This document shows positions 39,001-48,000 of a DNA stretch of 64,000 nt, piece after piece (position 1 is the first letter of the stretch; each line of letters begins with the position of its first letter). Position numbers: made by a program. This stretch comes from Escherichia coli (GTDB lineage Bacteria; Pseudomonadota; Gammaproteobacteria; Enterobacterales; Enterobacteriaceae). The stretch lies in assembly GCF_003991155.1 (NCBI RefSeq), contig NZ_CP031297.1; one strand, written 5' to 3'.

Positions 39001-42000
39001 CGGTCTCATGGCCTGATGTGAAGGCATACGCTGTACCTTGAACGCCAGAGACAAAATTAGGAGCTGACCCTAGGCGAGGCTCCACGATTTTCACCTTAAC
39101 GGAACACATGTCAGCTACCTTACTTTGTCCGTTCACCCACGTCGGGCAACCCCATTCATTCTTGTAGAACTGATAGGTTAGGCGACCGTCTTTGTCATAC
39201 AGAAGCGTGAAATTGGCACCCAAATCAGTCAGCGCTGACTCAATGGAAACTTTCACATGTGAAAGAAATTTGGCCTGAGCGTCTGCCGGTGAAACTGCTT
39301 CGTTAGCAGGCATCCAAGCGATCAAGCTATTGCGAGCGCCATGCTGTTTGGGGCCGATAGCCCAGTTCGCAAGGTTGACCAAGCCACCTTGCCAGTCGGT
39401 CATTCCGAGCTGAGGGGACATGTAGCCAGACAGCACGTAGGCTGCCCCAAACGTTTTGGTGTCGGTCAGACGCTCCAGCTTGTCACGCGGAACAGAAGCG
39501 TCTTGGATGCCTGTTACCAGGCCACCGGCCTCCGCGATGTTGTAAGCGCGACTGTGATTGGTTTTGTACGCTGTGGGTTCGTAACTGCTGGTGGATGCAC
39601 AGCCAGATAGAGCTGCTACAGCCAGAGCCACGGTGGTGATTAAAGCCTTTTTCATGTTGTTCTCCGTTCTTACCTGAGTTGAATCTGATTTACTTCGATA
39701 ATATCACAGCATCAAAAAATGCAACCATAAAAGACAAAAAAAAGCCCCTCGGGCGAGGGGCAAAGGTTTGGGCTGGGTTATGCTGCTTTTGTTTTCTCGG
39801 CTTCGTCTGCGATTTCCTTGTCGCCGGTTGCAGATTCCGGAGCGGCTTCGGCCACTTCACCTTCTTTGCCTTTGCTGTGGGCGGAAATGCGAGCCCGTTT
39901 CTCGATGCCGATGATTCGACCGGCCAGCTTGATGAGGCGTTGCTGCCATTGGTAAGTGGCGTCGGTGCGCTGCTTGCTGGTCAGTACGGTGTTCAGCCAG
40001 AGAGTGTCAACGATCCCCATCAGGGTATCCAGTTTGCGGATCAGGTGTGCAAACTGAGCAACCTGAGGAGAGTTGATCTCGATGGTGTATTCATTCGGGT
40101 TGGTGTAGCCGGGCATCATGTCGATGCCGTTGTCTTCCATCAGCTTGTTGAGCTGGGCGGTAGCTTTGTCCAGGTCTTCGGAGACCTTGGAAATGTGTTC
40201 CAGGATGACGGTTTCAACCTGGTCGATTTCGTCCTGCTCACCGATGATGCGAAGGATCACGTCGATGGAGAACAGGGAGTTGGAAACTCGCTCAAAGCTG
40301 CGTTCCATGACGCGCTGAGCTTGGAGGCTGTTTACTTTCAGAACTTGCTTGAAAACAGGGCGAGAGTAGTGGTTGCTGCGGTCGTTGTTTGTGTCCAGTG
40401 CTACTTGTGCTTCTGCCATTAGAGATACTCCTAAATTTGAGGTACAGATAAACGCACTGGAAAGGATAAATGCGGTCAATCTGTAACCTGACCTCTCGAA
40501 GTGCCCAAAATGGACAGTTACAGCGTTTTCTGTTTAGCAAAGGTGAGCTATATTTGAATCATCTTAGTCGCTCTGCGGCTATAGGTGAGATAGCTGGTCT
40601 CCGAAAACAAACAGCATCTAGTCTTATGCCGTATGGCATTACTTAACCCCAAGCCGGGGGCTTCTCCCGGTTTTCGGGTGTTGCCCCTGTTTTTTTTACA
40701 TAGGAGCAACACCATGCACATCATCACTTTCATTGTAGTTCTGCTTGCATCTCTGGGCGCACTGTACGTAGGCGCGAAGGCATTTGCTTTTTCCTTCATC
40801 GTTCTCGCTAAAGTGTTCCAGCGTATCGGTTTGTTCCTTTGGAACAAATTCGCAGTTCCTGCAATGCGGTCTGTACAGGCCGTCATCAAAGAACGTGCTG
40901 CCAAGGCTGAACAAGCCAAAGCAGTCGTTGAACCTGAGGTAACTCAAGTTCAAGAAGTCGCTAAACAAGAACCTGACTGGGATTATCTCGAAATCCCGAC
41001 TTACCTTCGTAAGGGCAAGGAACTTGTTTGGTAATAACTGTCGCTGAGTAATCTTCGACACTTTCAAACCCATCGGGGCAACCATACCCCGACGGGGATG
41101 TTGCCCCTTTTTGCTTAGGAGCAACATCATGGAAATCGCTATCATCGCTTTGTGTATCCCTGCTGGTTGGGCAATCTCTCGTCCTTTCGTGAGAATCGCT
41201 GAATCGTTCGGTTACTGCTGATAGTCAACGCAAAGGGAGGGGGCAACCCCTCTCTTTCTGGTCAAGCCTCTGTGGCTTGTCCTCAAAGTCTTCTGGTGTC
41301 AGTTGGCTTTGACGACAAGCTACAGGGGGAATGTCGAATGCAACAGAATCTTCATGTTTACGACGATCACGCAGGCATCATCTATCTGGCTGATGGACGC
41401 GAGGTGAAATTTGATCCGAAACTGTATTCCAGCTCCTACCAGGCGCACAGTGAAGCAGTGAAGTGGGCCAAAGAAACCGGGGTCATTGGTCAAAACGACG
41501 ATGTGGTGATGTTCGTCCATTGAGGGAGTAGCCTCCAGGAGAGGCTACTCTCCTCGCTCCTTAAAAGTCTTCTTACTCATGGTGAATACCATCAGTAAGC
41601 AGATTTTGTTCTCTTCGGAGAGCGAAAAGTGCGATAGCTGGTCGCCAAAAACAAACAGCAAATTAACGTTAATTTACTAGCCCAACCGGGCGCATCCGCC
41701 CGGTTCGGGACGTGGTGCGCCTGTCACAATAGGAGCGCACCTATGTCTCAATACTCTCAATTCTCAGTAAGCAAGGTTTTCGGTATGCCCAGCATTCCGG
41801 AGAAGGTAACGGCCATCGGCTACGCTGACGGTTCAAACCCTTTCATCCCTGCCACTGATACCAACTACGTTTTCCGCAAAGAGTTTCTGCGAGAGGTCTT
41901 GGCCTATCTCAAAGAGCCTGGCGGTGACGCATTGTTCGTAACCGGCCCTACCGGGTCTGGCAAAACCTCAGGTATCACCGAGATCGCTGGTCGTCTCAAC

Positions 42001-45000: not shown

Positions 45001-48000
45001 TTGACCCGATCCTAACCAAACTCGCAAATCGCGCCATTGCTGAAAACGCATGGTCTGCGGCGCATGAGTATGTGAAGGGACGGTATGAAGGTTCGGAACT
45101 GCAATATGCGACTCAATTCCTTCGTGACAAGGAGATGGATCAAATGGAGCCTCCGAAACCTGACTACCAGGAAGCGCACGAGCAAGAGTCCGCCGCTGGT
45201 GGTTCTGCAAATGCTGAACCTGGTGCCGAAGAAATGCCGCCTTTGAGTGACGAGGACATGATCCCTGTTACAGAAGAGGAGGGCGCGGAAGGCAGTTACT
45301 ACTAACCCCAACGGGGGGGACTCCCCCGCTGGGGGAGATCTCCCTCCTAACCATTGGAGAGAGGTCCATGAAAATAGTCAACCTATCGCAACGCGAGGAA
45401 GATTGGCTTGATTGGCGGCGTCAAGGTGTAACAGCCACTGACGCCGCTATCCTGCTCAATCGGTCTCCGTACAAAACACGATGGAGACTGTGGGCCGAGA
45501 AGACTGGGTATGCGCGTGAAGTCGATCTGAGTCTTAATCCGCTGGTTCGCCGGGGGATAGAAAACGAAGATGCTGCAAGACGCGCTTTCGAGGAGAAGTA
45601 TGATGACATGCTGCTCCCCGCCTGTGTCGAATCGGTTCAATACCCGCTCATGAGGGCCTCCCTGGATGGCCTGAGAGATAACGGGGAGCCCGTCGAGCTG
45701 AAAAGCCCGAGTGCGACTGTCTGGGAAGATGTTTGTGCTGAGAAAGCAAACAGCAAGGCATACCAGCTTTATTACCCGCAGGTGCAACACCAGCTCCTGG
45801 TAACGGGGGCCAAGCAAGGCTGGTTAGTCTTCTACTTTGAAGGTCAGATTCAGGAGTTTCCAATACTCCGAGACGAAGCCATGATTCAAGAAATCTTGGC
45901 CGAGGCTAAAAAGTTCTGGCAACAGGTAGTAGACAAGAAGGAGCCCGACAAAGATCCAGAGAGAGACCTGTACATACCGCAAGGTGAAGAGGTCAACCGT
46001 TGGATTGCTGCTGCTGAGGAATACCGCCTCTATGATGCAGAGATTCAGGAGCTGAAACAGCGACTGTCTGAGCTTCAAGAAAGGCAAAAGCCTCATCTCG
46101 ACACCATGAAGTCCCTCATGGGGGAATACTTCCATGCCGACTACTGCGGTGTGATGGTAACGAGATACAAAGCGGCTGGCCGGGTAGACTACAAAAAGCT
46201 GTTGGCTGATAAGGCGTCAGGCGTGAAGCCTGAGGATGTTGACCAGTACAGAGAGAAGTCATCAGAGCGGTGCCGTGTAACGGTTACTGGCTCTGTGAAG
46301 CCACGGTACATTGTTGATGAGGACGTGCTTGCTCCTCTTGATGATTTGCCGGAAGAAGTAGAGACGTTCTACTGGTGAGTGGGGGATTTTCCCCCGCTTT
46401 CCCTTGGGGATTCTGGGAGTCTCCAACGGAAAGCAAGATTTTGTTCTCTTCGGAGAGCGAAAAGTGCGATAGCTGGTCGCCAAAAACAAACAGCAAATTA
46501 ACGTTAATTTACTAGCCCAACCGGGCGCATCCGCCCGGTTCGGGACGTGGTGCGCCCCCAACTTTTTGGAGTGCATCATGACTAAAGTGAACCATCTACA
46601 AAGCCTCTGTGTTATCCACGTAGACTTTGACATCTGGAGTGGACAAACCCGTTTGTCTGCATCTGATCTCAAGCTGGGCGAGGGTGGTGAAATTCCACCT
46701 GAGAAAGTAGCTCAACTGGGAAGTAAGAAGATCTGTGATCCGGCTAAGCTGAAAGGCTTTCATCGCCTGAAAACAGAAACTCGTCGCCTCCTGCTGAAAT
46801 TCGGTATGCCGTTCATGAACGGATTTGCCGTACCCGTCAGCAAGACCGATGAAATCTGTAACAAGCTGAATGACATCAACTTTCAGTTTAACCAACTGAA
46901 ACAGGATTTCATCAAAGGTTACAACAAAGCCGTGGATGAATGGTGTCAGGAGAACCCTGAGTATGAACGAGCTATCCGTGCCGGAGCCCTTCCAAAGGAA
47001 ACGGTCGAGGAGCGGATTGGCTTTGAGTACCAGGTGTTCATGATCCAGCCTGTGAACGAAGATGAGGCCAACGCCAAACGCCTTAACCGCAAGGTTGAGC
47101 GCCTGGGTGACGATCTCATCTCCGAAGTGGTTCAGGAAGCGAATAAGTTCTATATGGAACGTTTGGCCGGTCGAGACCAATGTGCGGTCACTACTCGGCA
47201 GACACTCCGTAACATCCGCGACAAGGTGGATGGGCTTAGCTTCCTGAACAGCGCTTTTAACCCTCTGGTCAAGCTGCTCGACCAAACCCTCCGGGGATAC
47301 GAGCAACATGCCGATGGCCGAAACATCGTTGCGCCTTTCTTTTATCAGGTCGTGGCCGCAGTGCTGATCATGAGCGAGAGGGACCGCATCGAGCAGTATG
47401 CCAATGGCTCGATTACTGTAGAGGGCATGGCTAATGACATTGGCGGTTCGGGAGCCCAGATGGGGGACCGTTCTAAAGATGAAAAGGCCGAACAGAAAAG
47501 CGATAAAGCCGGTGAGCTTATCCCTGCAACAGAGGGTGGCGAAACCAAGCAGCAACAGGTAGGTGGTACTGAATCTGTTCAATCAGAACAGACTAACAGC
47601 GGTGGTAACTCTGTTGACCTGGATGAAGACATCGACAACTTCTTCAAGAGTTTTGCAGAACGAGGCGAGGGTGAATCGGAAGATGAATCCAATGCCGGTG
47701 ATGTGGTTCGAGAAGAGCGTGTTGATGTTGAGGATGAGCTGGTTTTGCCTGAGGAAACTCCGGTAGAGCAAGAGCCTGTCCAAGAGGAGACGACAGAGGA
47801 GCCTCTCAACCAGGAGCTGCCTAAAACTGACGACGATGGCGACTATTTCTTCTAATAGTCACTTCAACTAAACCGACCCGGAGGGGATAGCCATTCCCTC
47901 CAGGGGTGGACTATCTCCTTCCCTACCAGGAGAAAAGATATGTCCAAAAAACGCACCATTTACAGCGCTCTACCAATCGTGGCCGCAGCCTATGGTGAAA

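Follow-up and report, generated by a model that had tools for sequence, protein, structure and literature searches.

Paired rptI repeats around the hde operon of an IncC plasmid backbone: probable composite mRNA leaders and a substrate for deletion

The DNA considered here is a 64,000-nucleotide stretch of Escherichia coli contig NZ_CP031297.1 (assembly GCF_003991155.1), referred to in its full length as the window, in which two identical 121-bp direct repeats, copy A (41601–41721, + strand) and copy B (46436–46556, + strand), bracket the hde operon with its ssb, bet and exo genes. These copies are very probably paralogous composite messenger RNA (mRNA) leaders of the published rptI repeat family, homogenised by gene conversion, available as a substrate for loss of the hde block and acting as RNA in cis. 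Their standing as rptI-family leaders and as a real substrate for loss of the block is secure. That the leader works as RNA, with its fourth hairpin gating translation and a two-hairpin core serving as the recognition site of a factor, is likely. To the published account of these repeats (Roy et al., 2020; PMC7498323) the analysis adds a natural deletion, the direction and recency of the conversion, and a broad, covarying and uncatalogued core that is tied to AcaCD-type promoters.

The repeat pair and its place in the rptI family

The original prediction described a perfect 121-bp direct repeat, and copies A and B are identical across exactly 121 nt, with 0 nt of further identity on either flank; by chance, approximately 3e-64 such pairs would be expected in 64 kb. 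The partial third copy that it also proposed is present at 55174–55236 (+ strand, 98% family match), where 55182–55216 repeats 46527–46561 over 35 nt. This copy comprises hairpins 3 and 4, the Shine-Dalgarno (SD) sequence and the start of the gene at 55234, and the sequence TTGGAGTGCATCATG occurs at 46566 and 55222 only.

Each of the two full copies ends 22 nt before a start codon. Copy A is the leader of the AAA_5/CbbQ_C ATPase gene vcrx089, with its ATG at 41743, and copy B is the leader of the DUF3150 gene vcrx094, with its ATG at 46578, after which comes the VWA/CobT-like gene vcrx095. The bracketed hde operon (41743–46378, + strand; delimited from the pMS6198A annotation, Pfam and the functions given in PMC7498323) consists of vcrx089 (41743–42711), vcrx090 (42722–43630), ssb (43691–44221), bet (44316–45305) and exo (45368–46378), all on the + strand. 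The 5′ module of the repeat recurs in six window copies, at 40552, 41594, 46429, 50262, 54675 and 58459, again all on the + strand, and the leader copies occupy intergenic gaps of the long co-directional gene array that runs from vcrx087 to vcrx1xx.

A query of 7.5 kb around the repeats matched 837 plasmid records, 731 of them with at least 99% identity, and many IncC (IncA/C2) plasmids, pSN254 and pMS6198A among them, match the repeat region with 100% identity. By these matches the window is IncC plasmid backbone, and because more than 730 independent IncC records carry the same sequence at 99% identity or above, the repeat pair is no assembly artefact.

The rptI repeats (rptIa–f) have been described as intergenic direct repeats conserved in IncC, the longest copy of which, 155 bp, lies upstream of vcrx089, and a 32-bp segment of rptI is also found in SGI1 (PMC7498323). 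The operon name stands for “host defence evasion”: vcrx089-090 counter type I restriction, while ssb/bet/exo rescue plasmids cut by Cas3 (PMC7498323). Bet/Exo anneals rptI copies to repair the Cas3 double-strand breaks, independently of RecA and with loss of the intervening DNA, and the rescued plasmids in Roy et al. (2020) all had deletions between rptI direct repeats (PMC7498323). The same study reported, by reverse transcription PCR (RT-PCR), one transcript from Pvcrx087 through copies A and B into vcrx094, and also predicted that vcrx089 has its ribosome-binding site sequestered (PMC7498323).

We mapped the rptI family on pVCR94deltaX (NC_023291). Copies there are spaced by 23,702 and 9,268 bp and by approximately 10,311 and 14,073 bp, and the published type I scar deletions measure 23,702, 9,268, 10,310 and 14,076 bp (PMC7498323), so that two of the four agree exactly and two nearly exactly. 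The pVCR94 ortholog of copy A, upstream of vcrx089, is the copy used in the most frequent published scar, and the size of the 23,702-bp deletion makes copy A rptIb. As assigned by position and copy spacing, the window repeats belong to the published rptI family; the 32-nt core GTGCGATAGCTGGTCGCCAAAAACAAACAGCA fits the “32-bp segment in SGI1” of Roy et al. by length only. The published labels give 10,310 bp for rptIb-rptIc and 9,268 bp for rptIa-rptIc (PMC7498323, Table 1), whereas on the pVCR94 map the copy that yields the 23,702-bp rptIb-rptIf deletion sits 9,268 bp, not 10,310, from the third copy, and the a and b labels of these two scars look swapped.

That a direct repeat around hde is a recombination substrate was thus already known (PMC7498323). 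The original prediction is supported overall, and what it missed is that its repeats had been published as rptI. The published study treats them as DNA substrates and does not contain the covarying two-hairpin motif, the spacing to AcaCD boxes or the Betaproteobacterial spread described below.

Gene conversion between copies and natural loss of the hde block

The perfect identity of A and B is a derived state. Coding sequence across five genes diverges from that of the window by 2.4% in pVCR94, 8.9% in a Vibrio rumoiensis plasmid and 23% in an Aeromonas caviae plasmid, which gives a backbone tree of ((window, pVCR94), V. rumoiensis), Aeromonas. Within the 121-nt segment, A and B differ at 9 sites in pVCR94, 5 in V. 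rumoiensis and 11 in Aeromonas, and at 0 in the window; comparison of the two leaders in related plasmids, which had been suggested as a check, finds full identity in the window lineage only. The rptI study worked with a lineage that has the 9 A-versus-B differences, and the pair considered here is the identical one. Two B-specific bases are common to pVCR94 B and V. rumoiensis B, and window B carries the A state instead. Conversely, an A-specific extra C is common to pVCR94 A and V. rumoiensis A, and window A is without it, as is B. The window-specific changes are exactly the states of the paralogue, in both directions on the backbone tree, and the proposal of gene conversion made in the original prediction is upheld.

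Similar exchanges are visible among other copies and lineages. A variant of hairpin 1 that differs at 7 sites is common, in pVCR94, to copy A and to the sixth copy, which lies 23.7 kb downstream, while in the window lineage (pMS6198A) copy A and the sixth copy share the other variant, and in Aeromonas the same altered palindrome, AAACGAACGTTTT, stands in both A and B. From these alignments it is secure that the identity of A and B was produced by homogenisation through gene conversion in the pSN254/pMS6198A lineage, and repeated gene conversion within the family is the best reading of the wider pattern.

The identity could instead be maintained by selection, with the CobS-like ATPase gene and the DUF3150/CobT-like genes needing identical control. 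Both leaders do precede functionally linked genes (AAA_5/CbbQ_C on one side, DUF3150 then VWA/CobT on the other), and the leader is more conserved than the coding DNA that flanks it, window A and V. rumoiensis A showing 2 differences in 122 columns and the genes 4–12%. Sister and outgroup lineages nevertheless retain both genes despite 5–11 differences between their leaders, copy A of pVCR94 is identical to a sixth copy ahead of an unrelated gene, and the paralogue's states in the window carry the signature of conversion. With 5–11 differences tolerated in sister lineages, there is no need to invoke selection for identical control; this part of the original prediction is not supported, and we consider the explanation improbable next to gene conversion.

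The deletion of the 4.8-kb block that the original prediction expected the pair to permit has occurred in nature. A junction query composed of 300 nt to the left of A, the repeat, and 300 nt to the right of B was searched in a plasmid collection, and the predicted A × B junction is present at 100% over all 721 nt in 4 of the 861 matching records. In these plasmids vcrx088 is followed directly by the DUF3150 gene, and vcrx089-090-ssb-bet-exo is gone. On the strength of these four junctions, the window repeats serve, as rptI repeats do, as a substrate for deletion-forming recombination. All four plasmids come from Salmonella Newport in the USA, share a downstream IS26 and probably trace back to a single event; judged by gene content, they are still classed as conjugative by MOB-suite. 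The reciprocal tandem-duplication junction was found in 0 records of the plasmid collection.

The system is comparable to lambda Red and RecET, in which an exonuclease and an annealase recombine short direct repeats without RecA and the interval is deleted, and the Bet and Exo proteins of IncC are homologues of the lambda proteins, at 25% and 24% identity (PMC7498323). Unlike in lambda Red or RecET, the repeats here bracket the recombinase genes themselves, and an A × B event removes the system that can catalyse it.

Several further rearrangements of the region were seen. In the E. coli IncC plasmid p19A20-2 (NZ_ON934555.1), an apparent repeat-mediated breakpoint was rejected, as it is an insertion into copy A: approximately 1.4 kb of unannotated DNA (locus 2609–4111) splits the copy just before the TAGCTGG loop (window 41633). 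The insertion is probably an insertion sequence (IS) element and, if so, vcrx089 has been parted from its leader core. The hde blocks of the relatives from Aeromonas caviae and Vibrio rumoiensis and of pAQU1 have no annotated ssb between vcrx090 and bet, so that the five-gene form of the hde operon seen in IncC is not universal. Plasmid pMS6198A is without approximately 10 kb that is present in the window and in pVCR94, between the copy upstream of vcrx098 and yfbR (pMS6198A 21903–22763, compared with pVCR94deltaX 20424–32100 and the window from 50302 onward). This missing DNA includes the dcm methylase region, and its breakpoints lie off the exact core motifs.

Leader anatomy and a covarying two-hairpin core

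The leader is a composite of four predicted hairpins, a tail and a palindrome, all on the + strand. In minimum free energy (MFE) folds of copy A it opens with hairpin 1, UUUUGUUCUC-UUCG-GAGAGCGAAAA (41604–41628; 46439–46463 in B), which is followed by hairpin 2, GCGA-UAGCUGG-UCGC (41631–41645; 46466–46480 in B), with an invariant 7-nt loop at 41635–41641. An invariant A/C-rich tail, CAAAAACAAACAGCA (41646–41660; 46481–46495 in B), runs into a 16-nt palindrome, AAATTAACGTTAATTT (41660–41675; 46495–46510 in B), and then comes hairpin 3, AACCGGGCG-CATC-CGCCCGGUU (41684–41705; 46519–46540 in B and 55174–55195 in the third copy), the 3′ arm of which is also given as CGCCCGGTT.

Hairpin 4 straddles the end of the repeat. 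In leader A it is predicted at 41714–41745 (MFE fold z = -5.1), where the 5′ arm GGUGCGC, within the repeat, pairs with GCGCACC at 41735–41741, outside it, and encloses the SD sequence AGGAG (41731–41735) beside the AUG at 41743. In leader B it is predicted at 46549–46580 (MFE fold z = -5.2), where the same 5′ arm pairs with GUGCAUC (46571–46577) through two G-U pairs and encloses the SD sequence UGGAG (46567–46571) beside the AUG at 46578. The 3′ arm thus lies outside the repeat in both leaders, and hairpin 4 is conserved as an architecture, with G-U pairs where the sequence differs. In this it resembles SD-sequestering leaders such as RNA thermometers and translational operators, in which an upstream anti-SD arm pairs with the region from SD to AUG; unlike those leaders, rptI adds an upstream conserved two-hairpin module. 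Across the family, the distance from the tail to an SD sequence and start codon has a median of 80 nt and falls within 60–120 nt in 90 of 106 cases. The stretch between them is strongly structured (median z -4.9), and the SD sequence is fully paired in 56% of 85 leaders, compared with 27% of rough controls.

Hairpins 1 and 2 and the tail form a core that extends far beyond the 121-bp pair. The pattern TAGCTGG-N7-AAACAAACAGCA occurs 6 times in the window and 6–8 times per related plasmid, always on the gene strand. Besides A and B, the window holds copy P0 (40552–40618, + strand; 71 bits with the covariance model described below), copy P3 upstream of vcrx098 (50262–50329, + strand), copy P4 with the compensated stem GAGG/CCUC (54675–54743, + strand) and copy P5, which has the stem GCGG/CUGC with one G-U pair and a different hairpin 1 (58459–58525, + strand). 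With one genome taken per species, a pattern scan yielded 120 stretches or more, with approximately 35 chance matches estimated. Over all loci examined, including the window and related plasmids, the loop is flanked by 4 or more complementary bases in a row in 150 of 180 instances, and at least 14 different sequences make up the stem of hairpin 2. Among the matches listed are hosts in Vibrio, Shewanella, Photorhabdus, Edwardsiella, Marinobacter and Idiomarina, together with Comamonas, Tepidimonas, Sulfuritalea and other Rhodocyclales, and the core is accordingly found in conjugative elements of both Gamma- and Betaproteobacteria.

With a covariance model trained on 28 IncC-family copies, 140 instances were detected in 100 sources. 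In the resulting core alignment, 90.3% of cells are paired, compared with 57.9% in shuffles, and the covariation score of 0.776 (0.216 in shuffles) is reached by 0 of 500 shuffles; controls in which the partner was slid along gave 32–49% pairing. The helix of hairpin 1 is 88% paired with changes on both sides at all 7 pairs, and for hairpin 2, compared over 128 distinct sequences, pairing reaches 99% and each of the 4 pairs changes on both sides. Counts of 176 G-U pairs and 48 A-C pairs indicate that it is the sense strand that folds. A pseudoknot between loop GCUG and tail CAGC was considered, in which CAGU variants would give G-U pairs; both partners are nearly invariant and so offer no covariation in its support. 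Taken by its compensatory changes, sense-strand folding and fixed position relative to genes, the core would qualify as a structured cis-regulatory RNA leader class.

The core does not correspond to a catalogued family. Rfam 15, which includes JUMPstart/ops, preQ1 and STAXI, gave no match at gathering threshold in the whole window and no match on any repeat copy at E values up to 10 over 40400–59000, and nothing relevant came up when full texts were searched for the motif sequence or for IncC RNA elements. In viral contigs there were 10 raw pattern matches, of which 1 was convincing by the covariance model. A distant search with the whole 7.5-kb block was dominated by plasmid ssb genes. In Betaproteobacterial loci the genes that follow the motif include those for SSB, a DUF3799 PD-(D/E)XK nuclease and a DUF1281 protein, and comparison of these 8-kb loci with the window proteins by blastx found ssb and no homologue of Bet or Exo. 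In almost all loci, genes homologous to those of the IncC array point the same way as the motif. A Pfam scan of the neighbouring small open reading frames (ORFs) for an RNA-binding candidate gave no matches. Multiple co-oriented core copies lie within a few kb of one another on the chromosome of Tepidimonas sp. HKU77, in Sulfuritalea and in Marinobacterium, and these clustered chromosomal copies suggest integrated conjugative elements with the same leader system.

The array also carries a second family of repeats, AACCC-stem-loop-stem-GGGG hairpins that stand directly upstream of many of its genes, as at bet (44274), and that resemble hairpin 3 of the 121-bp repeat. They lie at 41066–41096, 44240–44270, 50965–50995, 54209–54239, 55544–55579, 61017–61052 and 63737–63767. 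Nearly every array gene seems to have its own leader hairpin, with or without the two-hairpin core.

The position of the core relative to promoters is also constrained. Searches for the AcaCD-type box used GCCCNDWWWGGGC with one mismatch allowed, for which the background is 0.03 per 220 nt. In 29 of 163 unique contexts, distant genera included, such a box lies 85–95 nt before the loop, and mostly at exactly 88. In published AcaCD/SetCD-type promoters the box is approximately 59 nt upstream of the site where transcription starts, with its end approximately 47 nt before it (PMC8373056), and the 88-nt spacing combined with this geometry places the motif at about +4 of the transcript. P0 exemplifies the arrangement, with the box GCCCAAAATGGAC at 40503–40515 (+ strand) in the divergent acaB/vcrx087 promoter, 88 nt before its TAGCTGG, so that its two-hairpin motif would stand at about +4 of the AcaCD-dependent vcrx087 transcript. 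P3 begins farther on, 150 nt past an AcaCD-like box at 50152–50164, and the 220 nt that precede copy A, like those that precede copy B, contain no AcaCD/SetCD-type box. In Sulfuritalea an AcaCD-like box was seen 93 nt upstream of one core copy.

The window as a whole contains 29 matches to the AcaCD box, with 5.9 expected. Those ahead of transfer operons, exact at 849, 18256, 18927 and 35884 and with one mismatch at 10552, 23205 and 28846, are in no case followed by the two-hairpin motif, so that within the AcaCD regulon the motif is confined to the non-transfer part. A sigma-70 promoter (-35/-10 with 16–18 nt spacing) turned up neither inside copies A and B nor beside them, and none of the repeat copies contains a promoter-like site. 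Sigma-70-like sites are depleted across the 18.6 kb from 40400 to 59000, with 3 present and 13.1 ± 3.4 in shuffles, a depletion that agrees with very few promoters serving an 18-kb array. Intrinsic terminators, searched for as a GC-rich hairpin with a T-run, fell in a repeat copy at 0 of 22 sites, and shuffles gave 19.1 sites, so that there is no excess. On its gene strand the array has a single strong intrinsic-terminator-like site, at 49753–49782 (+ strand, 13-bp stem with T-run). This site separates the VWA/CobT-like gene from the ORF at 49798 and stands approximately 370 nt upstream of the box at 50152.

Proposed function and competing explanations

In the model that we favour, the leader would act in cis on RNA. 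Hairpin 4 is predicted to gate translation initiation of the downstream gene, and the two-hairpin core may be the recognition site for a conserved factor by which the non-transfer “establishment” genes would be controlled, at the level of processing, stability, read-through or translation. The role of the repeats in recombination would then be a by-product of repeating a functional leader, one that the plasmid's own recombinase exploits. A more specific proposal concerns the core itself (hairpin 1, hairpin 2, the UAGCUGG loop and the AAACAAACAGCA tail), which may be a structured RNA motif, uncatalogued so far and widely conserved, of conjugative plasmids and of integrative and conjugative elements of Proteobacteria, read by a host or element factor that sets the expression of establishment genes apart from that of transfer. 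It would be placed at about +4 of transcripts that depend on FlhDC-type master activators, with their boxes at a fixed 88 nt, and also at internal intergenic sites ahead of ssb, recombinase, nuclease, methylase and anti-restriction genes. We hold this proposal tentatively, as nearly balanced and leaning slightly towards doubt.

Several points weigh against the leader model and the recombination history attached to it. The RNA role of the motif is read from sequence and predicted fold. The covariation alignment was fitted to a covariance model, a procedure that favours structure; this concern applies mainly to hairpin 1, as hairpin 2 is little affected because its register is fixed by the invariant loop and tail. 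The control for SD pairing is crude. The four deletion plasmids share a serovar and a downstream IS26 and may record a single event, and their sequence fits either RecA or Bet as the maker of the deletion. No 4.8-kb A × B scar appears in Table 1 of PMC7498323, although the protospacer used in that study, “downstream of vcrx093”, lies beside copy B, and Roy et al. view the repeats mainly as repair substrates whose palindromes might slow Exo (PMC7498323).

In one competing explanation, the repeats are primarily dedicated sites of Bet/Exo annealing and repair, Chi-like or scaffolds for single-strand annealing, with hairpins that work at the DNA level, for example by pausing Exo. Each of the 73 repairs sequenced at position 5 had made use of rptI copies, and slowing of Exo by the palindromes has been proposed (PMC7498323); the natural A × B deletion is a further point in its favour. 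Single-strand annealing, however, needs sequence identity, and selection here preserves pairing while stem sequences change. Most copies share only approximately 32 nt, a repair site has no need of a fixed 88 nt to activator boxes or of 60–120 nt to start codons, and the Betaproteobacterial 8-kb loci have the motif with ssb and a nuclease of a different family, DUF3799, and without a Bet or Exo homologue by blastx. We regard this explanation as unlikely. A little less likely still is that the core acts as single-stranded DNA on the transferred strand, in ssi-like priming or as another signal during conjugative entry. A strand-specific hairpin with an invariant loop containing CTG would suit such a role, as would the occurrence of the motif in conjugative elements and, with the single convincing match noted above, hardly ever in viral contigs; the genes downstream function upon entry into the recipient (PMC7498323). 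Yet the copies are confined to one gene array, 40.5–58.5 kb of the window, and are not spread around the plasmid, their spacing to AcaCD boxes and start codons is fixed, G-T pairs are frequent though weak in DNA, oriT is approximately 65 kb away, and the + strand has to be assumed to be the transferred one. The Frpo/ssi single-stranded DNA signals of plasmid leading regions (Masai and Arai, 1997; Samuel et al., 2024; PMC11541004) are comparable in being strand-specific hairpins of conjugative plasmids, ahead of ssb and anti-defence genes with a function on entry. Unlike them, the rptI hairpins are far too short for a -35/-10 duplex, lie approximately 65 kb from oriT and are tied to double-stranded AcaCD-type promoters, and the idea of a leading-region single-stranded DNA promoter is weakened by both the distance and the short hairpins. 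Fixed spacing to promoters and starts, together with selection on pairing and not on identity, makes both the annealing-site and the single-stranded DNA explanations fit poorly.

A third alternative stays within the RNA-leader model as a specific version of it, in which the repeats are cis-acting signals for processive anti-termination or anti-polarity of the nut, put or ops kind. We think this rather unlikely. The two-hairpin architecture recalls put RNA, and lambda nut (boxA/boxB), HK022 put RNA and ops/JUMPStart are likewise short sense-orientation elements in leaders of long operons, sometimes repeated. The motif stands near the promoter at about +4 and is repeated every 4–5 kb, promoter-like sites are depleted across the 18.6 kb, and RT-PCR shows a single transcript from vcrx087 to vcrx094 (PMC7498323). 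Against it, no strong intrinsic terminators are predicted at the repeats, the 60–120 nt spacing to start codons points equally to translation or processing, and the sequence fails the definition of ops. An ops/RfaH element (core GGCGGTAG, with invariant G5 and T6) was in fact tried and rejected: the position just ahead of TAG takes A, G, C or T, and the resemblance of GCGGTAGCTGG to GGCGGTAGnnTG breaks down because the four bases 5′ of TAG vary, and do so jointly with the bases after TGG. Unlike nut, put and ops, the present element has no match in Rfam, JUMPstart included, and is known from its sequence and predicted fold. It is scarcely credible that the copies are selfish, as miniature mobile or REP-like intergenic repeats, and play no part in the control of genes. 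They are multi-copy, intergenic and hairpin-forming, as such elements are, but all have one orientation and fixed positions relative to promoters and start codons, orthologous positions are kept across lineages with 23% backbone divergence, and no terminal inverted repeats or target duplications were seen. The reading of A and B as composite mRNA leaders, shared by gene conversion and acting in cis, remains the one that we prefer.

IncC plasmids are major carriers of multidrug resistance, and the block bracketed by A and B encodes their anti-restriction and CRISPR-escape functions. With perfectly identical repeats on either side, the hde block is the part of the backbone most easily lost, and its loss is seen in the Salmonella Newport plasmids; loss of hde bears on host range and on the origin of backbone variants. 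The core motif, common to distant conjugative elements and tied to master-activator promoters, is the part most worth following up. It offers a handle on how genes for entry and establishment may be controlled after transcription has started, and such a post-initiation layer of control has not been described before for this family.

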